Shown: positions 2,213-61,992 of the stretch, one piece after another
How the letters are laid out: each line of letters opens with the position of its first letter
Numbering within the stretch: position 1 is the stretch's first letter
DNA from: an uncultured Gammaproteobacteria bacterium
GTDB taxonomy: Bacteria; Patescibacteriota; Microgenomatia; UBA1406; GWC2-37-13
Length of the DNA stretch: 64,000 nt
Assembly: GCA_964396395.1 (NCBI GenBank)
Contig: CAYNFC010000007.1
Coordinates: 299 to 64,298, forward strand
Reading direction: 5' to 3'
Made by a program: the position numbers and the translations under genes
Notes under the pieces: generated by a model
Seen by the model: only the letters and a program-made list of their open reading frames with translations
The model's database searches: none
What the model was told of the DNA's origin: nothing

Positions 2213-3139
2213 ATGGATGGAGTTACCGATGCTCCCTTTCGTTATATTACCGATGTTTATGGAAAACCTGACATTATTTATACGGAGTTTATTTCTGTTA
2301 AAGGCTTAATACTTGGCAAACCAGCCATCAATCGCATGCTCCTTAAACACAAAACCGATACGTTTACTGTAGCTCAATTTTTTGGGACGGAGCCGGAATA
2401 TTTTTATCAGGCGGCACTAGTCGCCCTGGAAAAAGGATTTGACGGAGTTGATATTAATATGGGTTGTCCGGATAGAAGCGTCTTTAATCGGGGAGGAGGA
2501 GCAGGATTAATTTTACAACCAAAACTTGCTAAAGAAATTATTTTATCGGTCAAAAAGGCCGTCAAAGAAGGAATAAAAAAATTTAAAATAAAAAAAGATA
2601 TTACAGTTTCGGTCAAAACCAGAACCGGTTATAGGGAACATAAGACAAAAGAATGGATAAACAATTTGTTGGAGGCAGAGCCGGACGTTATTTGTATTCA
2701 TGCCCGGACTTTTGCCCAGAAATATTCGGGCCTAGCTGATTGGAGCCAAATAGGAATTTCAGCTGAAATAGCCAAAAAAACCAAGACAAAAATATTTGGC
2801 AATGGAGATATAAAAAGTCGATCTGCAGCATTGGATAAAATTAAAGAATATGATCTGGCTGGAGTTTTGATTGGTCGAGCGGCATTAGGGAATCCTTGGA
2901 TATTCAAAGGAGTAATTCCATCAACTGTTGAGAGATTCAAAGTATTATTGGAGCACTGCAAAAAATTTACAGAATTTTTTCCGTCAGCTGACCTAAGCAT
3001 TATGAGAAAACATTTGGCCTGGTATGTAAAGGATTTTTATCATGCCGCTGAAGTTAGGAACGAACTGATGCAGGTAAATAGTGTTGATGACGTGAAAAAA
3101 ATATTATCGAAAATTATCTCCTCCACGGTCGTAGCATAG
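2213..3139 (+). CDS. tRNA-dihydrouridine synthase
   Basis: 308-aa ORF starting MDGVTDAPFR, with GVDINMGCP. These are classic Dus motifs. The upstream in-frame GLAP is also Dus-like, but no ATG/GTG/TTG start is available there, so the N-terminus is uncertain. Confidence 0.85.
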   Translation: MDGVTDAPFRYITDVYGKPDIIYTEFISVKGLILGKPAINRMLLKHKTDTFTVAQFFGTEPEYFYQAALVALEKGFDGVDINMGCPDRSVFNRGGGAGLILQPKLAKEIILSVKKAVKEGIKKFKIKKDITVSVKTRTGYREHKTKEWINNLLEAEPDVICIHARTFAQKYSGLADWSQIGISAEIAKKTKTKIFGNGDIKSRSAALDKIKEYDLAGVLIGRAALGNPWIFKGVIPSTVERFKVLLEHCKKFTEFFPSADLSIMRKHLAWYVKDFYHAAEVRNELMQVNSVDDVKKILSKIISSTVVA

Positions 3140-3172: not shown

Positions 3173-3200
3173 TATTTTAAAAACGGCCGTCGCATAGATA
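3173..3200. repeat. 28-bp palindromic site, copy 2
   Basis: TATTTTAAAAA-CGGCCG-TCGCATAGATA. The left arm is degenerate. The right arm is shared with copy 1. Confidence 0.6.
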
Positions 3201-3384
3201 GATTATTTGAATCTTACAAAACCTTTGTTGAGATTAATTCAGTATTCCATTAAGAAGAACTAGATTTTTACTCAAGTTAGGAATATTTTTTACTTAAAAC
3301 CCAAAAAACTTATTAGAATTTTCTTAATTCTTTTCACAATTTTATTTTACACCAATGTTTAATCTAATAAGTAATTCAAGAGAT

Positions 3385-3954
3385 CTATTTTCTCTTAAGG
3401 TAATATAAAATGTGGAGAAAGGGGATAATTCCTAAATTTTTATCTTTAAATTGACGGCTTTCTTCAATTTTAAATCCATGTTTTTTAAATATTTCTCTCC
3501 ACTCTTTATCTATTTTGTATGAGTTCCAAAAAGCATCCAACCTTAAATTTCCGATCGCATCTGAAATTACAGTAAATATTTTATTTACAGGACTTGTATA
3601 TGAAGTCTCAATTATTACTAACTCATCTGCTACCCGAGCGGCTTCTTTAAATACTAACTCAGGACTTGTTGTATGGTGTAAAACCATTAGTAATAATGCC
3701 GTATCAAACGATTTATTTTTAAAAGGAAGAATCTTACCATCATAGATAGTTGTTTTAACCAGTCTTAGTCCATGAAAATTACCAACGTCAACAGGTGTAA
3801 TTTTTTTACCCTTTTTTTGTAATAAATAAGCTACGTCACCAGTACCAGAACCAATATCAATAATTTTTTTGGACCCTTTTAAATAAGAGAAAATTCTTTG
3901 AACTACTATTTCCGATCGGCCTCTCACCAATTTTTGAATTATTGAACTTAACAT
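3385..3954 (-). CDS. class I SAM-dependent methyltransferase
   Basis: 189-aa ORF with motif I IIDIGSGTGDV and the post-I acidic residue (PVD). The LLLMVLHH region is typical of Methyltransf_11/25-like proteins. Confidence 0.75.
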   Translation of the reverse strand: MLSSIIQKLVRGRSEIVVQRIFSYLKGSKKIIDIGSGTGDVAYLLQKKGKKITPVDVGNFHGLRLVKTTIYDGKILPFKNKSFDTALLLMVLHHTTSPELVFKEAARVADELVIIETSYTSPVNKIFTVISDAIGNLRLDAFWNSYKIDKEWREIFKKHGFKIEESRQFKDKNLGIIPFLHILYYLKRK

Positions 3955-4026
3955 AAAGTAATAACATTATATTAAGATATTTATACCCTAGAATACAGGA
4001 AAAAAGTGATAAAGATATGAATAAAA

Positions 4027-4098
4027 TTATTTTTCCCACTTCGAAATGGAAAGGTCAACGCGATGACAGGGGACTTGGGGAGTGTTAGGATTATTTTT
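4027..4098 (-). pseudogene. internally deleted MGMT gene relic (copy B)
   Basis: Minus-strand reading gives KNNPNTPQVPCHRV-DLSISKWEK*. This is the MGMT active-site segment fused directly to the C-terminal tail. The deletion junction is the same as in relic A. Confidence 0.75.
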
Positions 4099-4742
4099 TA
4101 TAAAATAAAACGGCATGGGATTTTAATTTTCAATCGACCAATTCTCAGAAAAACATTATTTACAATATTATTTAACTTTTCTCTATCAACTATTTTTTTA
4201 AGTTGCTGTAAGTCAGATCTTCTTTGCTCAATATTTTTTCTTACGAAAAATCCCCAAGTTTTTAACCCAAAGCTATAAATACAATATAGAGTTTCTGGAG
4301 AAACGGTTTTTAAACTTATGCCTTCAAACGACGAGTCAATAACCCCACCGGAGGGAAAAGAAAATTTAATACTAGGGTATAATTCAACCAGAATCTCCTT
4401 TTTTAAGCCACCAAAATTAGAAGTCATTATTTCCAAATTTTTTCCATTTTTTTCAAATCGAAAATATTTTGACAGAGCTATTTTTTTAAGACGATTGTAA
4501 AAAGGAAATTTTTCATCAATAAAGGTATATTGTTCATAACCAAGTTTTAATAAATTATTTCTTATAATATCAAAATTTTTAATATCACAAATAATATCAA
4601 TATCTTTAATTTTTCTTTGATAACTATTTTTTATAAACGATAATAAAGACACTGAACCAATACAAAAATATTGCCGATCAGACGGAATTGAATCGATAAA
4701 ATCTCTTAAAGTAGAGGCAACCCATTTATTATCTAAATTCAT
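4098..4742 (-). CDS. hypothetical protein, possible minimal nucleotidyltransferase fold
   Basis: 214-aa ORF. IGSVSLL...KIKDIDIICD loosely fits the hG[GS]-x(n)-DhD pol-beta NTase signature. The stop codon lies inside MGMT relic B. Confidence 0.4.
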   Translation of the reverse strand: MNLDNKWVASTLRDFIDSIPSDRQYFCIGSVSLLSFIKNSYQRKIKDIDIICDIKNFDIIRNNLLKLGYEQYTFIDEKFPFYNRLKKIALSKYFRFEKNGKNLEIMTSNFGGLKKEILVELYPSIKFSFPSGGVIDSSFEGISLKTVSPETLYCIYSFGLKTWGFFVRKNIEQRRSDLQQLKKIVDREKLNNIVNNVFLRIGRLKIKIPCRFIL

Positions 4743-4789
4743 AAATCAATTTTACACCAACAAACAACACCCGGTGTTCAAAGCTATAT

Positions 4790-4817
4790 TATCTTGTAGA
4801 CGGCCGTCTTTAAGATA
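4790..4817. repeat. 28-bp palindromic site, copy 3
   Basis: TATCTTGTAGA-CGGCCG-TCTTTAAGATA. Lies 48 bp upstream of the 4742 start codon (minus strand). Confidence 0.8.
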
Positions 4818-4834
4818 ATAATTTAACAATAAAA

Positions 4835-4912
4835 TTATTTTTCCCACTTTGAAATAAAAAGATCGACCCGGTGGCAGGGGACGATGGGAGCATCAGGATT
4901 ATTTTTCAAAAA
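4835..4912 (-). pseudogene. internally deleted MGMT gene relic (copy A)
   Basis: Minus-strand reading gives FLKNNPDAPIVPCHRV-DLFISKWEK*. Nucleotide identity to 6412-6717 and 8292-8525 is clear across ...ggcaggggacgat.ggagcatcaggattattttt. Confidence 0.8.
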
Positions 4913-6086
4913 GAAAATACAGAAGCTTATCTACTATGTTTCTGATTGCAGCTGCTCCTTTGACTTCAGGTGGAGGACCTAATGAAGAATTTTGTGGAGG
5001 TAGGCCTTGGTTTTGCTGTTCTGGTGGAGGTCCTTGATCTGGGGGCGGACCCTGACGTTCTTGAGAATTTTCCAGAAGACGGAATTCTTCATTCCTTCTT
5101 TCCTGAGGATTAGGTGGTTGTCCCTCACCTTGGCATTTATCAGGATTATCTCGGCAGAATGTGTCGCGGGACTTTGGTGAGTTTGTAAAATCTTGTGGTT
5201 GACCACCACTAAATTGTTCTTTACACTTCTCGGGATTTTCTTTGCATAGTTTTTCCATTTCTTCTCGCTTTATTCCTTCTGGTGGTTTGCCTCGTTCTTC
5301 TTCTTTCCCTTCTGGGCCCGGTCCGAATTTTTGACATTCTGACGGATTTTTTTCACAGTATTCTTTACATGATGATTCACTATTGCATCCACCTGGTCCT
5401 TTAAATCCTTCTTGTGGCGGCCCACCACGGCGTTCTTGGCCTTCAGGCGGTTTGAATTTAGAACATTCATTAAAATTATCAGGACTGGAACAAAATGCTT
5501 TACAGGATTCTTCGGAATTACAACCACCAGGACCTCTTTTTTCTTCGCCTCCTTTCAATCCAGTTTGTTTGGCAAACTCTGAGCATTTTTGCCGATTCCC
5601 TTCCTGTTCACAGATTGATTTGCAGGTTTGGGGTGAATCACACCCTAGAATTTCTTTTGCTTTCGTAAGAATCTCCTGATTCTTTGGGCTCAATATTTGC
5701 TCTTTCACCAACCCTGTTTTTTTTGCAAAGTTGGTACATTTCTCAAAATTTTCCTCTTTTTCGCATATGTTTTTACATTCGGTTTCCGAACTACAACCCA
5801 GCTCTGTTTTTGCATGTGTTAATATCTCATCGGTTTTTCGTTCCTCATAAAATCCTTTTTGTTTGGCATACTGAATACAGGCGTCGCGATGAGTTTCGCC
5901 TTCACAATAGTTATGGCAGCTTGTATAGTCGGTACAGTTTCCGAGGCTTGTAATCGGATAGGTGATGCCATACTTTTTAGCAGCATCTTCATTTGTTGCC
6001 TGACCTTTTACTAATGGAGGCGGATAGAAAAAGAAAGCGGTAAATAATAAAAAAAGAAATAATTGACGGATTAATATGTGTTTCAT
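4899..6086 (-). CDS. secreted Cys-rich repeat protein with Pro/Gly/Gln/Glu-rich tail
   Basis: 395-aa ORF with an N-terminal hydrophobic signal (LFLFLLFTAFFF). It has at least five copies of a GC-x3-(S/E)C-x3-C-x6-8-C-x2-(F/Y)AK-type module. The C-terminus is low-complexity, and the last codons run into MGMT relic A. Confidence 0.7.
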   Translation of the reverse strand: MKHILIRQLFLFLLFTAFFFYPPPLVKGQATNEDAAKKYGITYPITSLGNCTDYTSCHNYCEGETHRDACIQYAKQKGFYEERKTDEILTHAKTELGCSSETECKNICEKEENFEKCTNFAKKTGLVKEQILSPKNQEILTKAKEILGCDSPQTCKSICEQEGNRQKCSEFAKQTGLKGGEEKRGPGGCNSEESCKAFCSSPDNFNECSKFKPPEGQERRGGPPQEGFKGPGGCNSESSCKEYCEKNPSECQKFGPGPEGKEEERGKPPEGIKREEMEKLCKENPEKCKEQFSGGQPQDFTNSPKSRDTFCRDNPDKCQGEGQPPNPQERRNEEFRLLENSQERQGPPPDQGPPPEQQNQGLPPQNSSLGPPPEVKGAAAIRNIVDKLLYFLFEK

Positions 6087-6424
6087 TTTAGATTGTCAAA
6101 TGGATTGGTATTTTTGGAAAACGGGTTTTGATACTGGGTTTTTTCGCTAAACGGATTTTCATATTTTGTCTCCATCGGAACATTCATTTTGTTTTCAACC
6201 TGAGTGGTTGGTGTTGGAGAATTTGTAAAAATAAATAACCCAACTACAATAAAAATAAGAAGTACAAATACTTCAATAACAAAAACTAGTTTTAAACGAC
6301 TGGGTTTTATTGGCTGAGTGATTGGTTGGGCAACGTCATCCACCATAGTACCACTATTACATAAATAAACGAAGTTGTCAATTGTCAAAATTTGTTTTTC
6401 TTTATCTTTAATTATTTTTTCCAC
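6083..6424 (-). CDS. single-pass membrane protein
   Basis: 113-aa ORF with one TM segment (LKLVFVIEVFVLLIFIVVGLFIF). It overlaps the upstream MGMT gene by 13 nt and the downstream gene by 4 nt (ATGA), suggesting translational coupling. Confidence 0.55.
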   Translation of the reverse strand: MEKIIKDKEKQILTIDNFVYLCNSGTMVDDVAQPITQPIKPSRLKLVFVIEVFVLLIFIVVGLFIFTNSPTPTTQVENKMNVPMETKYENPFSEKTQYQNPFSKNTNPFDNLK

Positions 6425-6717
6425 CCAGAAATGAAAAGATTAACTTTGTTATTTTTAAAACACACACCTTCTTTTAAAAGCATTTTTTTCTTTTGAGTAA
6501 TTCCTCCAATTCCCGAGTATCCGGTTAGTTTTCCGTCACTAGCGACGACTCGATAGCAGGGGACAATCGGGGCATCAGGATTATTTTTCATGAATGTTCC
6601 GACGGCCCGGGATGCTTTTGGTTTCCCGGCCAGCCCTGCCAGTTGACCATATGTGGCGACTTTACCTTCTGGAATAGAACGGCAGATTTTATAAACTTTT
6701 TCTTTAAATAAAGACAT
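6412..6717 (-). CDS. MGMT-family (methylated-DNA--protein-cysteine methyltransferase DNA-binding domain) protein, PCYR variant
   Basis: 101-aa ORF. VYKICRSIPEGKVATYGQLA...SRAVGTFMKNNPDAPIVPCYRVV is the MGMT C-terminal domain. The canonical PCHR reads PCYR here. Confidence 0.85.
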   Translation of the reverse strand: MSLFKEKVYKICRSIPEGKVATYGQLAGLAGKPKASRAVGTFMKNNPDAPIVPCYRVVASDGKLTGYSGIGGITQKKKMLLKEGVCFKNNKVNLFISGWKK

Positions 6718-6720
6718 ACA

Positions 6721-7227
6721 TTAATTAACCCTGTTTGTAAGTTTTGAGCGAAGTTCTCTGAAATAAAAAATGGCCTGACATACTTCTTTTGCCATTTCGT
6801 TTTCAGGATCAGTTTTGAGAGCTTTATTTACAAATAATAACGCCTGATTTTCATTTCCTTCTTTATTTTCAAGAACAGCCAAATCACATAATATTTGAAT
6901 ATCTTCAGGAAAAAGATGGTGAGCTTTTTTCATTAATTCCCTTCCAATATTTGGACTACCATTCATAAAATGAGTCCAACCTAAAAGATATAAAATTCTT
7001 GGATTGTTGGGAAGAAGTTTATCAGCTTTTGATAAAAAACTAATTGATTCAATAAACCGTTCTTGTTTACATAAGGCTTCTCCTAGAAGATAATAAGCCT
7101 CAGGATTTTTTTGATTAAATTTTATTGCTTGACGAAGTATCTTTTCTGCCTCTTCCCATCTTGCCAGTTCAAGACATTTATCCGCTTGTTTTATTAACTT
7201 TTTTACATTAGTTTTATTGTTTTTCAT
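6721..7227 (-). CDS. tetratricopeptide repeat protein
   Basis: 168-aa ORF with repeated WEEAEKILRQAIKFNQKNPEAYYLLGEAL-type 34-residue TPR units. Confidence 0.8.
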   Translation of the reverse strand: MKNNKTNVKKLIKQADKCLELARWEEAEKILRQAIKFNQKNPEAYYLLGEALCKQERFIESISFLSKADKLLPNNPRILYLLGWTHFMNGSPNIGRELMKKAHHLFPEDIQILCDLAVLENKEGNENQALLFVNKALKTDPENEMAKEVCQAIFYFRELRSKLTNRVN

Positions 7228-7235
7228 GACAAAAC

Positions 7236-8270
7236 TTACTTTTTATTTAAAATATAATATGATCCTTTACTTTTTCCCTTCATCATAATTAAGTCATGTT
7301 TTATCAGTTTTTTAAAATCAAGATGTCTAGTTGCTCGTGCTCTTTTAACTAATTTTGAATACTGACGATCGGTAATAAATCCTTTTTGTTTTATAGATTC
7401 CAAAATCTTCAAATGGTATGGTTGTAGTTGGGTTTTGGGACTTATTGCTTGTTGAGGAAGCAACTTTTCAACTCGTAGCAATTCATCGATAATTCCATCA
7501 GTAAAATATTCAAGCCATAAAGTAAAATCGACTGTTGGATATATATCATAATAATTTCCCCTGACTCCAACCATTTCAAAATATTTAGTGACGTTTTTGT
7601 TATAGTAATTTTCAAAGCTAAACAGATTAAAAGTATCTAATCCCATTTCGGCCAGAAGTATTTTGGTTGCCAGTCGGGTTGTTCTTCCGTTTCCATCCAT
7701 AAAAGGATGAATGATAACCATTTGCTTATGAAAAATACCAGCCAATATTAATGGGTCAATAATATTTTTATTTGATTTTACAAAATTAACAAGATCTGTA
7801 ATGAGTTTTTGGACATCTTTATGATCAGGCGGCCAATAAATGGTTTTTTGCGATTGCGGATCATTGACAAAGACAGCGTCTTGACGAAATTGTCCGGACT
7901 GAAATGTTGGGAGAAGTTTATGGGTTACTTTTTCTTGAATTGTTAAGATAAAATCAAGATTAAAAATAATAATTTCTTTTTCAAGCTTTATATTAATTTC
8001 TTTTAATATTTCGTTGTAGTTTAATACTTCCTGCTCACTCTCACGGATATTTTGAGGCCTTGTTTTTAGTATCTCTTTAACATTAGTTAGCGGGAGCGGA
8101 TTGCCTTCAATGCTGGTTGAGGCATAAGTAGAGATTTCCTCTGCATTTCTTTGCAATTCTGCTAAAACCACATGGGGAAAACGGTGTAAATTAAGATCGT
8201 TGACAAGTTCGTTGATTCGCTTAATATTTGCAAGTAATTTATTCGTAATAGTGTATTTTGGTTTAAACAT
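7236..8270 (-). CDS. Fic family protein with C-terminal winged-helix region
   Basis: 344-aa ORF containing the Fic motif HPFMDGNGRTTR (HxFx[DE]GNGRxxR). Confidence 0.9.
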   Translation of the reverse strand: MFKPKYTITNKLLANIKRINELVNDLNLHRFPHVVLAELQRNAEEISTYASTSIEGNPLPLTNVKEILKTRPQNIRESEQEVLNYNEILKEINIKLEKEIIIFNLDFILTIQEKVTHKLLPTFQSGQFRQDAVFVNDPQSQKTIYWPPDHKDVQKLITDLVNFVKSNKNIIDPLILAGIFHKQMVIIHPFMDGNGRTTRLATKILLAEMGLDTFNLFSFENYYNKNVTKYFEMVGVRGNYYDIYPTVDFTLWLEYFTDGIIDELLRVEKLLPQQAISPKTQLQPYHLKILESIKQKGFITDRQYSKLVKRARATRHLDFKKLIKHDLIMMKGKSKGSYYILNKK

Positions 8271-8291
8271 TAGACATATTATAGACGAATA

Positions 8292-8525
8292 TTAGACAAA
8301 AGTAAAGACTGATTTTTTATTTCTTCTGAGTAATTCCACCATTCCGTTACTGGCAACGACTCGGTGGCAGGGGACGATCGGAGCATCAGGATTATTTTTC
8401 ATGAAAGAACCAACAGCCCGGGCAGCTTTTGGTTTCCCAGCCAATCTGGCAATCTGTCCATAAGTAACGACTTTTCCTTTCGGAATGGAACGGCAGATTT
8501 TATAAACTTTTTCTTTGAAATTCAT
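8292..8525 (-). pseudogene. truncated/frameshifted MGMT-family gene
   Basis: 77-aa ORF identical in pattern to 6412-6717 up to PCHRVVASNG. A short deletion relative to the full copy (loss of the KLTGYSGI-equivalent codons) then shifts the frame. GGITQKK is still visible out of frame. Confidence 0.7.
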
Positions 8526-8792
8526 AAGGAAATAAGAATTAGTCCGGCGAGGATGCCGGCAATGCCGAAGTATTGATTGGGTTTGATTTTTTCTTAGAAA
8601 ATAATATCAAACCTGATAAAAACACCAATAAGAAAAAACTAACCAATTACCTTAGCTGATGATGCCAATAAAAATATCGCCACTTCCCAAAGTGTCATCG
8701 TCGCCAACCCCATCACTATACCCATATTTATTTATATTATTATAACGCTATTTTTTTCCATTCATCAACAAGTTGAATATTAAAAGATAATT

Positions 8793-9743
8793 TTATGGAC
8801 CAGTTGCCAGTCCTTCTACTTTCCATTGATTATCTTCTTTAACTAAGCCAACAAAACGGACATTTTCTCCCCGTTCAAATCCGTAATAAGAAATGGGTTC
8901 GTCAGCCGAGCTTGGATCCATAACCACGTCGAGAGTGATCATATACTGATGCCAAATTTCAGTCCAGTCTCCTTTTGATGACTCCTCAATATTTTTTATT
9001 TTTACTGAATTCATTGCGCTAAATTGCACTCCAAATGCCTGTTTTGTACTGTCATCATTTGTGATCTTTGAGGTCATCATCATGACCGCGTCACTTGCTT
9101 TACCCTCATCAATTAGTTGAAAAAAATTATTAACAATATTTTTCTCTTGGGGTAAATGCACTATATTAGCTCCCGATTTTTTTGTTGGTTCGATAGTTGG
9201 AGCCGAAACTAATCCTTGATTTTCACCTTTTTGAATTCGATCTGCGACTGCAATAGCTAATTTCATATTTTCTTCATTGGTTATAACTGTGGTCGAACTA
9301 CGGCTGACAGCAACATATCTATCCGGAGTGAGTTTTAAATATACTCCATAGAGATCTTCTCCCTGCCAAGAGACAAAATGTTTCATTTTAATTAATGCGT
9401 CTTGTCTTGTTGGCCGGCCTAAATATTCCGAACCTTCTTTCTGTTTTTCAAAACTTAATTTTGCTACATTAATTGTCAAGGAGCTATTTTCAGTTAAATA
9501 ATAACTGCATCCATGAATGACATTTGAATCATATCTATCAATCCTTAGCACTTTTCTTCCGAGAATTTTTTCAACAAACTCAGCTGAAAACTCAGCACAG
9601 ACATCTTCACTAATAATAATTTCTTTCTTGAATAAATTAGTAATTGGATTACTGGCGGTTGAAGTATTATTTGTCCGCCCCCGAGATAGAAATACCAATA
9701 CTACAGCTACCCCGATTATCAAAAAAGGAATAAATTTTTTCAT
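8793..9743 (-). CDS. membrane-anchored or secreted hypothetical protein
   Basis: The ORF extends to 9761. The start at MKKFIPFLIIGVAVVLVFL (9743) gives a typical signal anchor. No catalytic motif recognised. Confidence 0.55.
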   Translation of the reverse strand: MKKFIPFLIIGVAVVLVFLSRGRTNNTSTASNPITNLFKKEIIISEDVCAEFSAEFVEKILGRKVLRIDRYDSNVIHGCSYYLTENSSLTINVAKLSFEKQKEGSEYLGRPTRQDALIKMKHFVSWQGEDLYGVYLKLTPDRYVAVSRSSTTVITNEENMKLAIAVADRIQKGENQGLVSAPTIEPTKKSGANIVHLPQEKNIVNNFFQLIDEGKASDAVMMMTSKITNDDSTKQAFGVQFSAMNSVKIKNIEESSKGDWTEIWHQYMITLDVVMDPSSADEPISYYGFERGENVRFVGLVKEDNQWKVEGLATGP

Positions 9744-9794
9744 ATGTGCTAATTGTGGCAAAAATATTTTCCAAAGTCAAATTTTTAATTTTTT

Positions 9795-11590: not shown

Positions 11591-11786
11591 AAATATTTTA
11601 AAAAATTTATAACTAATCAACACATATCATTTGCGCTTTCCCACTTCTCATTATACCAAAACAACCCAGTTCCACTACCCAGATCGAACATTGATAAAAT
11701 AAGTTAGAGCTTTTACGGCTGAAAAAAAAATAATTTTTTGATATCATGTATCTTGCTCTTTAACAATTCTATTTGTTTATTATTTT

Positions 11787-11859
11787 TCCCCTGTAGCTCA
11801 ATTGGTAGAGCAGGTCCCTGTTAAGGACAAGGTTACTGGTTCGAGTCCAGTCGGGGGAG
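11787..11859 (+). tRNA. tRNA-Asn (GTT)
   Basis: 73-nt cloverleaf folded by hand. Acceptor TCCCCTG/CGGGGGA, D arm GCTC-AATTGGTA-GAGC, anticodon loop CTGTTAA, T arm ACTGG-TTCGAGT-CCAGT. No encoded CCA. Confidence 0.85.
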
Positions 11860-11860
11860 C

Positions 11861-11922
11861 CTGGAGAATGATATTATAGCCTCATAAATTACAGGACCGA
11901 ATGGTTCTAAGCCGATATTGAG
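11861..11922 (+). repeat. direct repeat, left copy, abutting the tRNA-Asn 3' end
   Basis: ctggagaatgatattatagcctcataaattacaggaccgaatggttctaagccgatattgag aligns with 14485-14548 at roughly 70 percent identity by eye. Confidence 0.65.
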
Positions 11923-14706: not shown

Positions 14707-15438
14707 ATGCATAAATTATTATCAATCGGACAAACCGCCGAACTATTAGGTGTATCTATTGATACTCTCAGACGATGGGATTCTGCCGGCCGTTTACGCT
14801 CCATCCGCAGTGGCCCAAGAGGTCATCGGTTTTATAATAGGTCAGACATTGATCAATATCTGCAAGAAATTGACACCATAGCTTTAAATTGGGCAAAATC
14901 TACCAATCCAACCGTGCCTAACACTGATGTTTACTGCCAAACTCGTGATGTATTTCAAGCCAGACTGGAAAAATTTCAATCAGAGTTAAGTAAAATCGTA
15001 TCAATTAAAATAGTTTCTTTAATTACGGCAGTTGCCGGCGAGATTGGAAATAATTCATTTGATCATAATTTGGGAAATTGGTCAGATATTCCCGGTATTT
15101 TTTTCTCATATGCTATCAGAAATAGGAAAGTAGTATTAGCAGATCGTGGTCAAGGCATATTGACAACATTGAAGAGAGTACGCACAGAACTGGTAAATTC
15201 TAGTGAAGCAATGAAAGTGGCATTTACTGAAAAAATATCCGGAAGATATCCAGAAATGAGAGGAAATGGGTTGAAGTTTGTAAGATCAATTATTGTGGAA
15301 AATCCATTTTCAATACATTTTCAAACAGGAAATGCTCAGCTATACTTAAAAAAGGATGACGTTGAACTAAATATTCAACAAACTAACACAATTATTCAAG
15401 GATGTTTTGCGCTTATAAGTTTTGAAGAGTTGATATGA
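14707..15438 (+). CDS. MerR/excisionase-type HTH fused to a GHKL (SpoIIAB/RsbW-like) ATPase domain
   Basis: 243-aa ORF. N-terminal LLSIGQTAELLGVSIDTLRRWDSAGRL is an HTH_17/MerR helix-turn-helix. The C-terminal part carries an N-box (GEIGNNSFDHN), G1 (ADRGQGI) and G2-like (RGNGLKF) motifs of histidine-kinase-like ATPases. Confidence 0.7.
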   Translation: MHKLLSIGQTAELLGVSIDTLRRWDSAGRLRSIRSGPRGHRFYNRSDIDQYLQEIDTIALNWAKSTNPTVPNTDVYCQTRDVFQARLEKFQSELSKIVSIKIVSLITAVAGEIGNNSFDHNLGNWSDIPGIFFSYAIRNRKVVLADRGQGILTTLKRVRTELVNSSEAMKVAFTEKISGRYPEMRGNGLKFVRSIIVENPFSIHFQTGNAQLYLKKDDVELNIQQTNTIIQGCFALISFEELI

Positions 15439-20278: not shown

Positions 20279-20306
20279 TATCTTGTGGACGATCGTACAT
20301 AAGATA
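20279..20306. repeat. 28-bp palindromic site, copy 5
   Basis: TATCTTGTGGA-CGATCG-TACATAAGATA. It ends 18 nt before the 20325 ATG, and its right edge runs into an ATAATT -10-like box. Confidence 0.8.
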
Positions 20307-20324
20307 ATAATTCAAATAAGATAT

Positions 20325-20912
20325 ATGGAAGAAAAGGAAATTAAGTTAAAACGGGGACAGTTATATTGGCATATCTTGGAGATCATAGGTCTAACTTTGA
20401 TATCGGCTGGCAATCCGCTTCGCCCAGTTATTCCTTTAGCCATAAAAGAAATTATTAAAACTCTTAAAGAAGTCAAAAATCTAAACGTTGAAGAAGAAAA
20501 AATTAAAAGAAGTTTAAAAAGCTTAGAGAGAAAAGAAATTATTGATCTAGAAGAAAAAGGTAATGAAGTTTTTGTCAGATTAAAAGATAAGAATAATTTA
20601 ACAGTAATAAAATATTCAACGAAAGCACTTTTAGATTTCAAAAGGAAAGAAAAAAATTGGAACGGCAAATGGTTTTTAGTTTTCTTTGATGTTCCAGAAA
20701 TTCAAAGGAATAAAAGAAATTATTTAAGAAAATTTCTCGTAGATATAGGATTTCATCAATATCAAAAAAGTATTTACATCTTTCCCTATGAATGCGAAAA
20801 GGAAATAGCACTGATTAAGAAAATTGTCGAGGGGGCAAAATATATGAAATATATAATTGCAGAAAAAATAGAGGACGAAAAAACAGTAAAATCTTTCTTC
20901 AAATTAGGATAA
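20325..20912 (+). CDS. PaaX-family-like regulator with Cas2/VapD-fold-like C-terminal half
   Basis: The ORF track starts at 20283, but an ATG at 20325 (MEEKEIKLKRG) is preferred. The N-terminal half is winged-helix-like. The C-terminal KWFLVFFDVPE...R..LRKFL.DIGFHQYQKSIYIFP matches the PaaX_C/Cas2-like beta-alpha-beta-beta-alpha-beta signature. Confidence 0.55.
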   Translation: MEEKEIKLKRGQLYWHILEIIGLTLISAGNPLRPVIPLAIKEIIKTLKEVKNLNVEEEKIKRSLKSLERKEIIDLEEKGNEVFVRLKDKNNLTVIKYSTKALLDFKRKEKNWNGKWFLVFFDVPEIQRNKRNYLRKFLVDIGFHQYQKSIYIFPYECEKEIALIKKIVEGAKYMKYIIAEKIEDEKTVKSFFKLG

Positions 20913-20954: not shown

Positions 20955-20982
20955 TATCTTGTAGACGACCGTCTTGAAGATA
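20955..20982. repeat. 28-bp palindromic site, copy 6
   Basis: TATCTTGTAGA-CGACCG-TCTTGAAGATA. Lies 43 nt downstream of the 20912 stop. Confidence 0.8.
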
Positions 20983-31760: not shown

Positions 31761-31788
31761 TATCTTATGGACGGCCGTCTTGAAGATA
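31761..31788. repeat. 28-bp palindromic site, copy 7
   Basis: TATCTTATGGA-CGGCCG-TCTTGAAGATA, 17 nt upstream of a TTGCAT box. Confidence 0.8.
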
Positions 31789-48219: not shown

Positions 48220-48247
48220 TATCTATACGACGGTCGTCTCTAAGATA
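48220..48247. repeat. 28-bp palindromic site, copy 8
   Basis: TATCTATACGA-CGGTCG-TCTCTAAGATA, 18 nt upstream of the pur promoter -35. Confidence 0.8.
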
Positions 48248-54727: not shown

Positions 54728-54755
54728 TATCTTATCGACGGCCGTCCACAAGATA
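54728..54755. repeat. 28-bp palindromic site, copy 10
   Basis: TATCTTATCGA-CGGCCG-TCCACAAGATA. It differs from copy 11 at only 2 of 28 positions. Confidence 0.85.
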
Positions 54756-54809: not shown

Positions 54810-55064
54810 ATGACAGTTAATAGTATTATCAAGAATAAGCCTTATTTGGCGTGGTATGTAAAAGATCCGGAAAATCTTTCGGAGGAGTCTGTTTTGGAAC
54901 ATGTATTAAACTACGGAAATTGGGATGATGTCCAACAATTCATTAGAATTAAAGGTAAGGATAAAACCGCCATATTATTTAAGAAAACCCTGACAAACAA
55001 AAGAACGAATTATCAACCGGCAGTTCAGTCTTATTTTTTCCGTTATTTTAATCATCGCGCATGA
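54810..55064 (+). CDS. small protein paired with an AbiEii-like nucleotidyltransferase (putative antitoxin partner)
   Basis: The ATG at 54810 is preferred over the TTG at 54795. ...WYVKDPENLSEESVLEHVLNYGNWDDVQQFI resembles the small partner proteins found upstream of AbiEii-type NTases. Its stop overlaps the next start (ATGA). Confidence 0.5.
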   Translation: MTVNSIIKNKPYLAWYVKDPENLSEESVLEHVLNYGNWDDVQQFIRIKGKDKTAILFKKTLTNKRTNYQPAVQSYFFRYFNHRA

Positions 55065-55669
55065 ATAAACAAATATTTAATAACGATCAGGAACAACTAC
55101 TTCCTTTTATAAAATTATTTTTATCGAATTTTTATCTTGTAGGAGGTACGGCAATAGCCCTTCATTTAGGACATAGAAGATCTATTGATTTTGATTTATT
55201 TACAGATAATATATTTGATCCTATGAAGATACGTAATAAAATAATGCAAGATAAAACTATCAATCATACTTTTTCTCAGGGAACTGGTGAATTAACAGTC
55301 CTTATTGATAAAGTTAAAATAACTTTTTTCCATTATCCATTTATTATCCAAAGAAATATTATGTTTGAACAAACATTAAAACTTCCTGACTTAATTACAC
55401 TTGGCGCCATGAAAGCATTTGCCCTTGGAAGACGGGCTAAATGGAAAGATTATATTGATTTATATTTTATTTTTCAAAAGCATTCATTTCAAGAATTAAT
55501 TGTTAAAACAAATAGTATCTTTAAAGCCGAATTTAATGAAAAATTATTTCGTACCCAGCTTAGTTATTTTGATGATATTGATTACTCCGAGCAAATTGAA
55601 TACATGGATGGGTTTGAAAAAAACGATGAAAATATAAAGCAATTTCTTGAAAAAATAAGTCTTTCCTAA
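55061..55669 (+). CDS. nucleotidyltransferase AbiEii/AbiGii toxin family protein
   Basis: 202-aa ORF. FYLVGGTAIALHLGHRRSIDFDLFT is the family hallmark (GGTAL..HR.S.DlDfF). Confidence 0.75.
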   Translation: MNKQIFNNDQEQLLPFIKLFLSNFYLVGGTAIALHLGHRRSIDFDLFTDNIFDPMKIRNKIMQDKTINHTFSQGTGELTVLIDKVKITFFHYPFIIQRNIMFEQTLKLPDLITLGAMKAFALGRRAKWKDYIDLYFIFQKHSFQELIVKTNSIFKAEFNEKLFRTQLSYFDDIDYSEQIEYMDGFEKNDENIKQFLEKISLS

Positions 55670-55681
55670 TTAATTGTTGTT

Positions 55682-55709
55682 TATCTTATCGACGACCGTC
55701 TACAAGATA
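55682..55709. repeat. 28-bp palindromic site, copy 11
   Basis: TATCTTATCGA-CGACCG-TCTACAAGATA, 13 nt after the 55669 stop. Confidence 0.85.
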
Positions 55710-56977: not shown

Positions 56978-57229
56978 TCAGCCGCAAACATTGAAAATTA
57001 ATAACTCTTTTTTAGCTTTAGTCATTTGCTTAATTTCAAATTCTCTTTTTAGTGCTTTATTGATGGTTTTATATTTTTCAAAATAAACCAACTTTGCCGG
57101 TCTCCGAACACGAGTGTATTTTGATTTTGAGTTATCACTATTATGTTCTTCGACTCGTCTTTTGAGATCATTTGTTTGTCCACAGTAAAGGGAGTTATCA
57201 GAACAGCGAAGGATGTAGAGATAATACAT
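56978..57229 (-). CDS. GIY-YIG nuclease family protein (UPF0213-like)
   Basis: 83-aa ORF. YYLYILRCSDNSLYCGQTNDLKRRVEEHN is the GIY-(x10)-YIG core. It starts 14 nt downstream of tRNA-Gln on the same strand. Confidence 0.8.
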   Translation of the reverse strand: MYYLYILRCSDNSLYCGQTNDLKRRVEEHNSDNSKSKYTRVRRPAKLVYFEKYKTINKALKREFEIKQMTKAKKELLIFNVCG

Positions 57230-59043: not shown

Positions 59044-59298
59044 AGAATCTCTTAACATTAATCGTAAAGTTTTCTTTCCAGAAGTAGTTTTAAAATACTT
59101 TTCTCTTCGAGTGGCATCGTGTATTGATAAGAAATATTCACAAAGTAATAAAGTAAATGGCCTTCTTGGTTCAGTTGCCTTCGAATGACCTTGAATATGA
59201 GAAGTCAATCTATCATGAAGGTTGGTAGTATAACCGATATAAAATTGATTGTCTTTTAGAGAAAGAAGAACGTAGACGCAATAAAGTAGCTTTTTCAT
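59023..59298 (-). CDS. GIY-YIG nuclease family protein
   Basis: The start is taken at MKKLLYCVYVL (59298). YVLLSLKDNQFYIGYTTNLHDRLTSH is the GIY-YIG core. It lies directly downstream of the 5S rRNA and its hairpins on the same strand. Confidence 0.75.
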   Translation of the reverse strand: MKKLLYCVYVLLSLKDNQFYIGYTTNLHDRLTSHIQGHSKATEPRRPFTLLLCEYFLSIHDATRREKYFKTTSGKKTLRLMLRDSLLFISK

Positions 59299-60288: not shown

Positions 60289-61992
60289 ATGTTTAAACAA
60301 GACATTGGCTTCTATTTAGGTCATGAAAAAACGGACGGTTTTTCCGGTTTTGTCAGTGAAAATAATTTATTTTTGGCGGTTGAGATTGAGGAAGGAATGA
60401 CCCCTGATAAAGGCAGGGAGCTAACGGCCTTCATAAAAGAAAAAATCAGTTCGATTATGATTGAGAATCTACAACAATTTGATTCCTTTATCTCCGGCTT
60501 AATCAAAGAAAAAAATTTACCGTCCGGTTTTTCTCTATCAGGCGGTTATTTAAAAGAAAATATATTTTATTTGAAAACAGTCAATCATGGTCAAGTATAT
60601 ATCCGACGGAAAGATAAACTAGCTCTCCTTATCAAAGGTAACGAATCTGCTTCAGGATATATTGAAGAAAGCGATATTTTTATTTTTACTTTCAATAGAT
60701 TTATGATTTTACTCGGAGAGGAAGAAGGACTAAATAAAAAATTTGATCACCGGCCGGTCTCGGAAATCATTGATGAAATTACTCCGGAACTGCTTACAAA
60801 AGACGATCAAGGAACGGCGGCTTTGTTTTTACAATTAAAAAAAATCGGAGAAATCGAAAAACCGGTTAGCGATTTTTTTGAACAACCGGAAAAAAAATCC
60901 CGAAAAATCCTGACATTTATAACGGTTTTTGTTCTTGGAATAATTCTTTTTTGGAGTGTTGGTCTGGGTTATAAAAGACGGACTCAGGAGATCGGCCGTG
61001 AGAAAATTAAATTGGCTAAAGAATTAATTGGCCAGAAATTGGATAAAGCCGAAGAAGTAGCTTTTTTAAATATGTCGAGCGCTTTGAGTTTAATTGCGGA
61101 TAGCAAAACGGAAGCAAATAAATTTAAACAAGAGCTCCGCCTTCGTCCTAACTCAGTCGGGACTATGGCGAGACAAGTAGAAGAATTAGAAAAATTGATT
61201 TCCGATACTGAGAATAAAATTCTCAAAAAAGAGGAAAAAAAATACAGCGAGTTTTTTGATTTAACGGTTGATGACAAAGATGCCAAAGGTGATAAACTCT
61301 ATCTTAACGACGGCCGTCTCTTAGTTAGTGATAAAAGTAGAGGAGTATTATATGAACTTTCACTGGAAAAAAAGTCTTTAGATAAAGATCAGTTCAGTGC
61401 TGTAAAAAGATCAAGCTTGATTACTTCATATGATGATAAAAAATATTTTTATGTTTCGGGAGAGGGTATCTACCGGGTGGCGGATGGAAAAGCGGATAAA
61501 GTAATTAAAAATAATAAAGACTGGGGAGAAATTATTGATATGGTGGTTTTTAACGGTAATATTTATCTATTAGATCGGGGTAAAGATGAGATTTGGAAGT
61601 ATGTGAGTACGGAAGATGGGTTTGGAAGCGGGATTTCCTACTTTCAATCCGGGCAATCAATCGACCTGTCCGCCATTAATTCCTTAACGATTGACGGTTC
61701 GGTTTATCTGGCCGGCGATTCGGTCATGGTTAAATATACTTCAGGCCTCCGCGACGGATTTAAGGTTAATTTACCGGACGATAATGTCAATATGACAAAA
61801 GTTTTTACCGGCAAAGATCTGGAAAAAGTCTATCTTTGGGATAAGGGTGAAGGGGCAGTTTATGTTTTGGGAAAAAATGGAAATTATCAGGAACAGGTAA
61901 ATTCAAAAATTTTATCAACAGGAACAGATTTAGTTGTCTATAAAGATTCTATTTACGTGTTGGGAGGAAGTAAGATATTTAAGATCGATTAA
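60289..61992 (+). CDS. hypothetical protein with central TM helix and C-terminal beta-propeller-like repeats
   Basis: 567-aa ORF with a TM helix at ILTFITVFVLGIILFWSV. The C-terminal half has repeated GxxY(V/L)xD..xxxI(W/Y)K-like strands. Confidence 0.45.
   Translation: MFKQDIGFYLGHEKTDGFSGFVSENNLFLAVEIEEGMTPDKGRELTAFIKEKISSIMIENLQQFDSFISGLIKEKNLPSGFSLSGGYLKENIFYLKTVNHGQVYIRRKDKLALLIKGNESASGYIEESDIFIFTFNRFMILLGEEEGLNKKFDHRPVSEIIDEITPELLTKDDQGTAALFLQLKKIGEIEKPVSDFFEQPEKKSRKILTFITVFVLGIILFWSVGLGYKRRTQEIGREKIKLAKELIGQKLDKAEEVAFLNMSSALSLIADSKTEANKFKQELRLRPNSVGTMARQVEELEKLISDTENKILKKEEKKYSEFFDLTVDDKDAKGDKLYLNDGRLLVSDKSRGVLYELSLEKKSLDKDQFSAVKRSSLITSYDDKKYFYVSGEGIYRVADGKADKVIKNNKDWGEIIDMVVFNGNIYLLDRGKDEIWKYVSTEDGFGSGISYFQSGQSIDLSAINSLTIDGSVYLAGDSVMVKYTSGLRDGFKVNLPDDNVNMTKVFTGKDLEKVYLWDKGEGAVYVLGKNGNYQEQVNSKILSTGTDLVVYKDSIYVLGGSKIFKID

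Follow-up and report, generated by a model that had tools for sequence, protein, structure and literature searches.

The window, a stretch of 64,000 nucleotides from an uncultured Roizmanbacteria-type bacterium, carries four segments derived from MGMT, a small DNA-repair gene, on the minus strand with unrelated genes between all of them (Table 1). Matches to PF01035 and an MGMT nucleotide HMM place all four where the original prediction had located same-strand copies or relics interleaved with unrelated genes. Copy 2 is single-domain, with PCYRV in place of PCHRV. Copy 1 shares 83% identity with copy 2 over 178 nt and, as predicted, is frameshifted, owing to an internal 22-nt deletion; a second one starts at the KKK codons and has removed most of the 3' third up to the stop region, which is kept. 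The 5' part of copy 1 together with 85 nt upstream is 87.6% identical to a related locus, L093. Relics A and B, 72 nt each and 80% identical to each other over 90 nt, were also correctly assigned to MGMT (nhmmer, relic A, 4912-4864, E=2.5e-10 and 4868-4836, E=0.039; relic B, 4106-4056, E=8.5e-07 and 4062-4027, E=0.004), and there are 2 mismatches in 44 positions between segment I of relic A and copy 1. Their translations, KNNPDAPIVPCHRVDLFISKWEK and KNNPNTPQVPCHRVDLSISKWEK, each run to a stop through the identical HRV-DL deletion junction that had been read from the sequence, and a 23-mer from the relic tails has two occurrences in the window where 0.02 would be expected. The preceding ORFs do terminate within the first bases of the relics, the Cys-rich ORF in relic A (stop 4899-4901, its last codons, EK and the stop, being MGMT-derived sequence) and the NTase-like ORF in relic B (stop 4098-4100).

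Table 1. Genes, MGMT segments and other features of the locus, in minus-strand order.
Feature	Coordinates	Strand	Evidence and remarks
Backbone gene, 322 aa, weak DUF4878	8793..9761	-	upstream side of hotspot; conserved
MGMT copy 1, degraded	8316..8525 (ORF 8525-8292)	-	PF01035 E=1.7e-27; MGMT nucleotide HMM positions 3-235
Native MGMT 3' flank, doubling as promoter-like Fic-module leader	8271..8324	-	TTTACT-17-TATAAT; promoter scan match 8306-8278
Fic-domain protein module	7236..8270	-	PF02661 E=2e-16; PADLOC SoFic E=1.9e-37; 88.9% nt to L092
TPR protein module	6721..7227	-	TPR families; 87.6% nt to L007, 91% to L083 vs ~80% backbone
MGMT copy 2, sole intact copy	6412..6717	-	PF01035 E=4.6e-31; TIGR00589 ogt E=1e-23; PDB 4wxd E=1.8e-16
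Membrane protein and Cys-rich secreted protein module	4899..6394	-	own promoter-like site 6381-6353
Relic A	4828..4917	-	MGMT nt ~124-172 joined to ~273-305, and stop codon
34-nt palindrome	4790..4823	-	ancestral place, downstream of MGMT copy; 94% to L007 418-451 and L105 1798-1831
NTase-like module	4098..4789	-	~50-nt leader and complete 214-aa ORF; 93.6% nt to L083
Relic B	4020..4109	-	MGMT nt ~122-172 joined to ~271-306
SAM-dependent methyltransferase module	3385..3954	-	PF13489 E=1.4e-11
Relic of leader and 5' end, staphylococcal-nuclease-like module	3297..3355	-	83-89% to L007 480-534, L083 10926-10984, L092 3774-3837
Dus, convergent conserved backbone gene	2213..3139	+	PF01207 E=5.5e-58; downstream side of hotspot

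The flank behind copy 1 has homologues at L007 366-420 and ahead of Fic in L092 and L006, and the membrane/Cys-rich module also lies downstream of MGMT in L181, L186 and L004. The NTase ORF retains a native C-terminus common to homologues that do not adjoin MGMT, and in relatives NTase is an ordinary neighbour gene found at several positions; its leader has 12 nt, TTGGTGTAAAAT, in common with the SNase-like relic. For the methyltransferase module, the module table lists no match at nucleotide level among the related loci. The palindrome folds stably (z=-4.6) and belongs to a family of at least 8 copies in the window against 0.5 expected. On the upstream side, the 322-aa backbone gene has 55% amino acid identity to its L002/L084 homologues, which adjoin a 5'-nucleotidase gene as it does in the window.

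Comparison with about 45 related Roizmanbacteria loci, covering 8-10 kb per array and the 64 kb of the window genome, identifies the region from 3.3 to 8.6 kb as one local version of an accessory-gene hotspot that is hypervariable across Roizmanbacteria (Microgenomates, CPR) and situated between (PanC-)MGMT and the convergent Dus gene. These relatives differ strongly in how many cassettes they carry and in which ones, in line with the original prediction. Empty sites with the bare order PanC-MGMT-Dus, in which Dus adjoins MGMT directly, occur in L089 and L091, while occupied genomes hold 1 to ~7 self-contained modules in differing order, from a single module (L002/L084, L006) to many (L083, L007, L092, L181 and the window). 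The repertoire comprises WD40-x-membrane-Cys-rich, NTase, Fic, TPR, HAD, SNase, LUD, toxin-antitoxin pairs and methyltransferases. The upstream side of MGMT also receives insertions, in the PanC/MGMT interval of L106 and L162. In L186 the last remnant of a downstream MGMT copy adjoins Dus as the intact gene does in empty-site L089, and is in this sense attR-like.

Two of the modules, membrane/Cys-rich and NTase, share one fusion point with MGMT: the 3' end of each is joined at nt ~123 to the final 60% of the gene. The fusion point is an A-rich decamer, GAAAAATAAT, which recurs at the MGMT stop codon and is present seven times in the window (2.35 expected), five of them within MGMT pieces; no significant homology was found upstream of it. 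Native ends of both module families resemble the decamer, since unfused NTase genes end in ...TTTTATTTTGTGA or ...TTATGAAAAT and the Cys-rich family in ...LF(K/E)(K/E) and a stop. The NTase-MGMT' junction is present in the window, L083 and L175-177. The Cys-rich-MGMT' junction is present in the window, L093, L105, L175-177, L181-185 and L186, with the MGMT piece in every decay state: undeleted in L105, carrying the identical deletion in three lineages (the window, L176/177 and L181-185), and a mere stub in L093, L175 and L186. The module-MGMT fusions are thus old and inherited across lineages. That the relic itself was propagated, as originally proposed, holds to the extent that the Cys-rich-linked relic recurs with the same deletion in L176/177 and L181-185. 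It does not hold for the NTase-linked piece, which is undeleted in L083 and L175-177 and deleted in the window only, so the relic B deletion is a later event, arising by a second slip, by conversion or by a swap at the A-rich decamer. Four versions of the 72-nt relic, 76-81% identical, each retain exactly both decamer-bearing ends, which could reflect constraint rather than chance decay. The duplicated extents vary in the nucleotide HMM matches, comprising the full gene with 11 nt upstream or stretches that run to the gene's end from nt 122-124, 141, 256 or 262, and one 5' MGMT relic covers nt 7-42. MGMT copies inside one genome convert each other; the partial copy of L083 matches the full copy of that genome at 98% in its 3' half and at less than 79% in its 5' half. 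Partial copies form no clade of their own.

Several modules are closer between genomes than the surrounding backbone, which indicates that they have been exchanged horizontally. Nucleotide identity to the window is 84.6% for the membrane/Cys-rich module of L093 against 64.7% for its backbone, 93.6% (NTase) and 91.0% (TPR) against 79.3% in L083, and 85.8% against 74.1% in L162. The NTase that is a resident neighbour in L169 lies below its backbone (69.9% against 76.6%). ComM-like and type IV pilin genes are found in the nearby backbone of relatives. Such genes are consistent with DNA uptake.

The absence of an integrase, part of the original prediction, was borne out in the array region and among the 10 otherwise unexplained window ORFs scanned, and no recombinase gene recurs beside the arrays within 8-10 kb around each examined related locus, the isolated exceptions being an IS200-like gene in L093 and a putative transposase-like ORF in L005. 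Neither a constant att core, with cassette left ends having none in common, nor an attC-like fold was found, and the relics have no stable fold (z about -0.8). Searches of viral, phage and plasmid collections gave no matches.

These results bear directly on the mechanism first proposed, serial integration at MGMT, here taken as site-specific insertion of integrase-less cassettes into the gene's 3' part, with that segment as attachment site and a recombinase encoded elsewhere, in the manner of tRNA-gene islands or of SCC elements at rlmH. The MGMT 3' part does travel with certain cassettes, the modules are mobile by horizontal transfer and the L186 end is attR-like, so this much of the predicted footprint stands. 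Direct repeats, empty sites, partial copies that are 3' parts starting within 2 nt in two module families, and the excess of decamers concentrated in MGMT pieces would all suit such a process, and a recombinase acting in trans could lie beyond the regions inspected. Against it, duplicated extents range from the full gene to 45 nt, with one 5' relic besides, most modules have no MGMT piece between them (L083, L007), and the partial copies form no element-type lineage. With variable extents, no left-end or common core, insertions in the PanC/MGMT interval and no recurrent recombinase, an integrase-driven mechanism of the tRNA-island type is not the best fit, and the position of NTase as an ordinary neighbour gene also speaks against it. 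We therefore regard site-specific serial integration as unlikely.

A purely local history, in which MGMT and its neighbours underwent tandem segmental duplication followed by differential gene loss with zero horizontal input, appears still more doubtful. NTase is resident upstream of MGMT in L172, L169 and L178, the NTase-MGMT' fusion could result if ~170 nt were deleted from an L178-like NTase-48 nt-MGMT arrangement, and decay by deletion is evident. However, the identities of modules and backbone disagree in either direction, MGMT is the only gene common to all four units of the window and the same modules appear in different order across genomes. It is very improbable that the 72-nt relic is conserved as a functional element, such as a 3' UTR, regulatory RNA or short peptide ORF, rather than as a scar. 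Its length, frame and stop codon are kept in four versions and relics A and B differ preferentially at third codon positions (9/14, P=0.017), but this bias is weak in other comparisons and is also explained by conversion from coding copies. A stable fold is absent, neither junction retains the start codon M43 and longer, shorter or absent versions lie behind the same genes in other lineages. The least credible alternative is an assembly artefact joining strain variants via MGMT repeats. The source is a metagenome-assembled genome, and assembly can go wrong at repeats of 90-300 nt, but two independently assembled contigs of the same strain match at 100%, L001 over 7015-6371 (TPR, copy 2 and membrane-gene junctions) and L082 across the Cys-rich 3' end, relic A, NTase, relic B, the methyltransferase and Dus. 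Homologous junctions also occur in other samples, in L092 (tail relic-Fic) and L175-177 (Cys-rich-relic-NTase-MGMT').

Our results lean modestly towards recombinase-independent turnover, by homologous and microhomology-mediated recombination, over site-specific serial integration. The fusions would have arisen by microhomology-mediated illegitimate joining of A/T-rich gene ends with the decamer. A unit of full MGMT, module and partial MGMT would then be flanked by direct repeats of a gene present in every relative, and direct repeats of a universally carried gene would allow homologous recombination to insert or loop out the unit without an integrase (insertion-duplication). On arrival as incoming DNA, the unit may thus have been inserted into another genome, or looped out, by ordinary homologous recombination. 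Fic-TPR may have entered between copy 1 and copy 2 by the same route with a full-length repeat, and redundant MGMT pieces would decay via short-repeat deletions, yielding the 72-nt HRV-DL relic and both deletions of copy 1. Turnover would probably depend on transformation and RecA. Recombinase-independent turnover is supported by the varied duplication extents, insertions upstream of MGMT, conserved junctions and lack of a recurrent recombinase. Against it, the break falls at the decamer, within 2 nt, in both of the unrelated modules and apparently also in a third switch, from the NTase junction to the relic B body, which a recombinase core site would also explain. The mosaic expected for copy 2, with a 3' part like L093, is not clearly visible in the alignment either.

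The locus invites comparison with several known systems. Islands and prophages at tRNA/tmRNA 3' ends likewise have an intact gene at one end and partial 3' copies after each inserted block in one orientation, but they encode a tyrosine integrase beside attL and their repeat extent is defined per integrase family. Integron arrays and integrase-less attC clusters also hold small promoter-poor or single-gene cassettes in one orientation, with ORFs often terminating inside the following recombination site. attC sites are imperfect palindromes recognised in folded form, whereas the relics here are gene fragments bounded by direct repeats and lacking a fold, and IntI and attI are absent. In Neisseria minimal mobile elements, cassettes are swapped between strains by homologous recombination in conserved flanks with no element-encoded machinery, and in insertion-duplication (Campbell-type) integration of transformable bacteria, single-gene homology gives direct repeats around the insert. 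The exchange of accessory cassettes via conserved flanking genes and the direct repeats of one gene are shared with these, although the known cases leave no series of decaying fragments of the flanking genes, and competence of Roizmanbacteria is putative.

SCCmec is located at the 3' end of rlmH. The Enterococcus cassette chromosome (ECC) occupies the same position (PMC6222049). The MGMT locus shares with SCCmec and ECC a target at the 3' end of a small housekeeping gene, tandem composites whose units are bounded by target-end repeats, some units without a recombinase of their own and highly variable cargo. SCC and ECC depend on Ccr large serine recombinases and carry, at both ends of every unit, att repeats that are short and constant; neither was found here, and the MGMT repeats vary in length between 25 nt and over 300 nt. 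Oliveira, Touchon, Cury and Rocha (2017) described HGT hotspots between core genes, many of them devoid of recognisable mobile elements and with homologous recombination at the flanking core genes (PMC5635113). The MGMT locus resembles these in its fixed interval between conserved genes, rapid gene turnover among relatives, lack of a detected integrase or transposase and signs of homologous recombination in the flanking core gene. It differs in that copies of this core gene, whole or partial, have arisen repeatedly within the hotspot, that a piece of MGMT is a fixed 3' appendage of two modules and that the host is a CPR bacterium. The MGMT-anchored locus of Roizmanbacteria is not a mobile element of a new class; it is a clear case of an already known kind of gene-exchange hotspot.

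A real footprint of serial acquisition is present in the window beside a gene with a duplicated 3' part, as the original prediction held. Its four MGMT-derived segments, with the layout then described, are confirmed by HMM matches and by independent contigs. Independent assembly of the same strain gave two contigs with exactly the array junctions of the window; the array is no assembly artefact. Against PF01035 (cutoff 27) copy 2 reaches 106.9 bits and copy 1 95.5 bits, and against TIGR00589 (cutoff 46.4) copy 2 reaches 83.2 bits. PDB Ogt/AGT chains match copy 2 with E=1.8e-16 in an alignment confined to their C-terminal domain. MGMT proteins here and in all relatives are single-domain proteins of 100-102 aa, and alignment to solved structures shows that the N-terminal domain of two-domain Ogt/Ada/AGT proteins is absent. 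The active-site motif is PCHRV in copy 1 and both relics. Copy 2, the sole intact copy, carries PCYRV at codon 55, with the Cys kept and the His replaced. This is confirmed in the independent assembly (L001), and a relic linked to a Cys-rich gene in the related locus L176 is likewise of PCY type. Copy 2 may be impaired or may be a DNA-binding-only protein.

Coordinates of the array and of associated features in the window and at related MGMT-bearing loci (L numbers)
Feature	Locus	Position	Strand
MGMT copy 1, degraded (ORF)	window	8525-8292	minus
3' flank of copy 1	window	8324-8271	
Fic gene	window	8270-7236	minus
TPR gene	window	7227-6721	minus
MGMT copy 2, intact, 101 aa	window	6717-6412	minus
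Small membrane protein and 395-aa Cys-rich secreted protein	window	ending 4899 (Cys-rich 4899-6086)	minus
Relic A	window	~4917-4828	minus
34-nt palindrome	window	4823-4790	
12-nt TTGGTGTAAAAT in NTase leader	window	4749-4760	
Nucleotidyltransferase-like (NTase) gene, 214 aa	window	4742-4098	minus
Relic B	window	~4109-4020	minus
SAM-dependent methyltransferase	window	3954-3385	minus
Short relic of staphylococcal-nuclease-like gene (leader and first codons)	window	3355-3297	
Dus, convergent	window	2213-3139	plus
Palindrome family copies	window	3173-3200, 4790-4817, ~20955-20982, 31761-31788, 48220-48247, 54728-54755, 55682-55709, 61300-61327	
Palindrome family copy	L007	421-451	
Palindrome family copy	L105	1798-1831	
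Palindrome family copy	L176		
Decamer copy GAAAAATAAT	window	11779-11788	
tRNA-Asn(GTT)	window	11787-11861	
tRNA-Asn(GTT)	L093	11829-11901	
tRNA-Asn(GTT)	L005	2717-2792	
tRNA-Asn(GTT)	L083	7425-7498	
Stand-alone small GIY-YIG nuclease ORFs	window	56999-57229, 59050-59286	
Stand-alone small GIY-YIG nuclease ORF	L093	11892-12131	
Stand-alone small GIY-YIG nuclease ORF	L092	1566-1805	
IS200/RAYT-like Y1 transposase, upstream of MGMT	L093	8892-9578	
243-aa MerR/HTH_17 (excisionase-type HTH) protein	window	14707-15438	
PaaX/Cas2-like domain protein	window	20283-20912	
Short AbiEii-like fragment	window	55061-55669	
ComM-like Mg-chelatase/AAA helicase and type IV pilin genes	L162	17913-19433	
ComM-like Mg-chelatase/AAA helicase and type IV pilin genes	L172	19379-20645	
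ComM-like Mg-chelatase/AAA helicase and type IV pilin genes	L186	16409-17161	

The other three segments are decayed. Copy 1 is frameshifted by the loss of 22 nt in the GKLTGYSG region; the stretch from its KKK codons to the stop region is missing as well, and its native 3' flank is kept. That flank is homologous to the sequence following the MGMT stop in L007 and to the sequence upstream of Fic in L092 and L006; in L092 just the last 16 MGMT codons remain before Fic. The flank contains a promoter-like TTTACT-17-TATAAT, and promoter-like sites are not enriched across the region as a whole. A nucleotide HMM of the clade's MGMT genes matches each relic as two pieces (HMM positions ~122-172 and 271-306), so that in each the FMKNNP...PCHRV stretch is followed directly by the last 12 codons. 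Relics A and B are 80.6% identical over 72 coding-frame bases and have the same internal deletion joint, the HRV-DL junction. Both upstream ORFs terminate within the first bases of the relic.

Several other features of the array were observed. Repeated CxxxC-type modules and a Pro/Gln-rich tail characterise the Cys-rich protein, which belongs to a large family lacking a Pfam match and widespread in Microgenomates (216 proteins, E<=1e-30). Exact-protein look-ups of the Fic and Cys-rich proteins returned no record; the latter is nevertheless present in the protein collection (P0020, from a 67.5-kb NCBI contig). In PADLOC the Fic protein hits SoFic, a candidate anti-phage family (E=1.9e-37). The nuclease-like gene, a relic in the window, is intact in L007, L083, L085 and L092, and both its relic and the NTase leader contain the 12-nt TTGGTGTAAAAT; a promoter-like leader is thus shared by different modules. 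The palindrome family (TATCTTnnnGACGGCCGTCnnnAAGATA, ~30 nt) has eight copies in the 64 kb where 0.5 are expected, and one is kept at the orthologous site 3' of MGMT in other genomes. The copy next to relic A folds with z=-4.6. Since they lack a T-tract the palindromes are no classical terminators, and they may be REP-like. tRNA-Asn(GTT) recurs near the hotspot; in the window its 5' end is touched by a copy of the decamer, the A-rich 10-mer that stands at MGMT nt ~123 and again at the stop codon; this contact may be coincidence. One GIY-YIG ORF of the window adjoins tRNA-Gln, the homologue in L093 adjoins tRNA-Asn and an MGMT stub, and that in L092 lies just upstream of an MGMT tail relic. Double-strand breaks in these hotspots could come from such nucleases.

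The locus is a hotspot in related genomes. Scans with copy 2 gave ~25 Roizmanbacteria/Microgenomates loci, and look-ups of the NTase and Cys-rich neighbours ~20 more. One side is formed by a tightly coupled PanC-MGMT pair (in most loci) and by a 5'-nucleotidase and an orf8793 homologue (in some); the other, in most related loci examined, by convergent Dus followed by nitroreductase, exonuclease and YqeY. The interval between these conserved genes is constant and its gene content variable. In L089 and L091 the site is empty and PanC-MGMT directly abuts Dus, and in L002/L084 and L006 a single gene (alcohol-dehydrogenase-like or LUD-domain) separates MGMT from Dus. Larger arrays read HAD-SNase-TPR'-NTase-MGMT'-HxlR-LUD in L083 (MGMT' being a partial MGMT), SNase-Fic-TPR-toxin/antitoxin-membrane gene in L007, WD40-x-memb-CysRich-relic-Fic-tail relic-HAD-LUD in L181 and WD40-x-memb-CysRich-mini relic in L186. 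Insertions also occur upstream of MGMT, as a Doc/AbrB pair in L106 and as NTase with ParE/antitoxin in L162-167. Most relatives have PanC, Band7, an OMP-decarboxylase-like gene and DUF167 ahead of MGMT; none of the four occurs at this locus (8526-8792) or anywhere else in the 64-kb window, and L093 has the same PanC-less sequence upstream of MGMT. Many modules resemble defence or toxin-antitoxin genes (SoFic-like Fic, AbiEii, ParE, RelE/Phd, Doc/AbrB, SLFN/AlbA_2, NYN). The cassette polymorphism expected between relatives is thus genuine: content between MGMT and Dus varies widely, and no single fixed arrangement was seen. The species-representative loci L002-L014, each searched, contain no relics of their own MGMT, and relics turned up solely in metagenome and Logan/ENA contigs.

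Modules and backbone disagree in their nucleotide identity to the window. It is 84.6% for the membrane-Cys-rich module of L093 (backbone 64.7%), 93.6% and 91.0% for the NTase and TPR genes of L083 (backbone 79.3%), and 85.8% for the NTase of L162 (backbone 74.1%). In L169 and L172, where the NTase is an ordinary upstream neighbour, module identity is 69.9% and 71.8% (backbone 76.6% and 77.4%). The MGMT of L093 with 85 nt upstream is 87.6% identical to copy 1. This likeness, combined with the discordance, indicates that modules have moved between lineages, sometimes with an MGMT copy. No MGMT or NTase was found on viral contigs, and the whole region had no match among plasmids and phages. The relic deletion junction, searched as a degenerate DNA pattern, gave no matches in IMG/VR or JGI metagenome contigs; the pattern was too narrow to catch the diverged relics (L176, L181) to which protein neighbours led afterwards.

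Two unrelated modules are fused to MGMT at almost the same position. The NTase ORF is complete, with a C-terminus (...KIP.RFIL*) identical in homologues far from MGMT, and in the window, L083 and L175-177 its stop is followed 0-2 bases later by MGMT from nt ~122-123. The attached piece runs undeleted to the stop codon in L083 and L175-177, and the 72-nt form occurs in the window only. The Cys-rich gene is fused to MGMT at nt ~124 in every close member examined, with its piece at every stage of reduction. It is complete in L105, has the 72-nt HRV-xL form in the window, L176/177 and L181-185 (mutual identity 76-81%), and is cut to the decamer and an RVDL... tail in L175, to the decamer and ~15 nt in L186, and to the decamer and 12 nt in L093, where a tRNA-Asn gene is directly fused. 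In L186 the remnant's tail meets Dus, and the sequence at this joint is that of the intact gene and Dus in the empty-site locus L089. Upstream of the decamer neither fusion junction has significant homology to MGMT, so that the two modules share one breakpoint to within ~2 nt. The decamer region TTTTTATGAAAAATAA resembles A/T-rich gene ends in this genome. Unfused NTase genes end in ...TTTTATTTTGTGA or overlap the next start as ...TTATGAAAAT, and the Cys-rich family ends in ...LF(K/E)(K/E)*, that is ...TTT(G/A)AAAAATAA. These similarities make 6-10 nt of microhomology available for an illegitimate join, which is a possible and simpler cause of the shared breakpoint. The NTase fusion could have arisen by a ~170-nt deletion in an NTase-48 nt-MGMT arrangement like that of L178.

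The claim that the relic itself was propagated stands for relic A only, and for relic B it does not hold in this simple form. The HRV-DL junction was first read as two independent slips at GTCG/CCGCGTCG; the same junction was later met in L176/177 and L181-185. As it lies behind the same gene in three lineages, the Cys-rich-linked relic was probably propagated by inheritance, the simplest explanation, and a single origin is at least as likely as independent slips. The NTase-linked counterparts of relic B are undeleted. Its body differs from them by ~30%, and in its tail and the 7 nt beyond the stop it is similar to relic A, L105 and L005-type alleles. Relic B may reflect a further slip at the direct repeat GTCG/CCGCGTCG, which full-length genes contain, or conversion from relic A, 0.8 kb away, or a decamer crossover that imported a diverged Cys-rich-type relic together with the methyltransferase. 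Differences between relics A and B fall at third codon positions in 9 of 14 cases (P=0.017), a bias that conversion from coding copies would explain and that is weak in other pairs. MGMT, the flanking core gene, carries a recombination signal in its mosaic or converted copies. Conversion is seen directly twice: in L083 the partial and the resident full copy agree at 98% over the 3' half and not over the 5' half, and relic A's segment I has just 2 differences from copy 1 in 44 positions.

The integrase-type mechanism originally proposed, in which a site-specific enzyme drives serial integration into the 3' part of MGMT as at tRNA-gene islands, is not supported. In favour of such an enzyme, all repeats point the same way, the partial copies derive from the 3' part of MGMT, one breakpoint is common to two modules, the end of L186 is attR-like, and unoccupied sites exist in L089 and L091, as for tRNA-type and SCC-type islands. 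Against this, no recombinase and no shared att core was found. Recombinase genes, IntI and tyrosine recombinases included, are absent from the region, from ten unexplained ORFs of the 64-kb window and from the annotated 8-10 kb flanks of related arrays, with isolated exceptions in the Y1 transposase of L093 and a transposase-like ORF in L005. The duplicated extent varies: right ends join MGMT at nt -11, 122-124, 141, 256 or 262, the copy 2 duplication comprises the full gene and 11 nt upstream, L114 has nt 141-305 fused to PanC, and L092 carries nt 256-305, nt 262-305 and a 5' relic of nt 7-42. Left ends are module-specific leaders with neither the decamer nor a common core, and the units do not each have a matching att core or repeat at their two ends. 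Only two decamer copies in the window lie outside MGMT pieces, and no other module boundary has one, which rejects the decamer as a general boundary of cassettes. In L083 and L007 most modules are not separated by an MGMT piece. The partial copies form no lineage of their own, so a separate element-type lineage is likewise rejected, and viral, phage and plasmid records contain nothing related. Among integrase-dependent systems, the SCC/ECC elements at rlmH (PMC6222049) and tRNA-gene islands come closest. Integron cassettes differ in that the relics here have no attC-like or terminator-like fold (z -0.6 to -1.3 on both strands against shuffled sequence) and no IntI with attI and Pc lies by the array.

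On balance we lean, with modest confidence, towards a recombinase-independent mechanism. Rare illegitimate events would create module-MGMT' fusions and full-length duplications. A module would then lie between direct repeats of a gene carried by all relatives, and an imported unit could be inserted by single or double crossovers in MGMT, regenerating one intact and one partial gene. Recombination between the repeats would lose the unit again, and redundant MGMT pieces would decay by short-repeat deletions and be partly homogenised by conversion. Hotspots of horizontal transfer without mobile-element genes include a class in which flanking core genes show homologous recombination (PMC5635113), which the present locus resembles in its constant interval, variable content, recombination signal in a core gene and horizontally acquired modules. 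In three relatives ComM-like and type IV pilin genes lie in the backbone 5-8 kb beyond YqeY, a position that corresponds to just outside the left edge of the window. A ComM-like helicase and type IV pilin genes nearby would fit DNA uptake. A more speculative and rather doubtful extension is that the MGMT 3' segment serves as a portable homology arm: a module fused to it, with a full MGMT copy on the other side, could undergo RecA/ComM-type insertion from imported DNA into the MGMT of any related cell, or loop-out, leaving the gene undisrupted, with the decamer as preferred crossover point. Alternatively, the decamer may be a true recombination core.

Annotators should take short MGMT fragments that are in frame, and the terminal codons of neighbouring ORFs, for recombination scars. 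To our knowledge little is known of accessory-gene gain and loss in the small genomes of CPR/Patescibacteria. This locus is a well-sampled natural series of empty site, single modules, composite arrays and every decay stage of the anchor gene, and it lets sequence data alone test homologous recombination of imported DNA against dedicated integrases as a route of gene flow. If the mechanism is ordinary, the locus is a good textbook case with no new principle. If the homology arm is real, it would be a recombinase-free counterpart of integron/SCC cassette capture in CPR bacteria.
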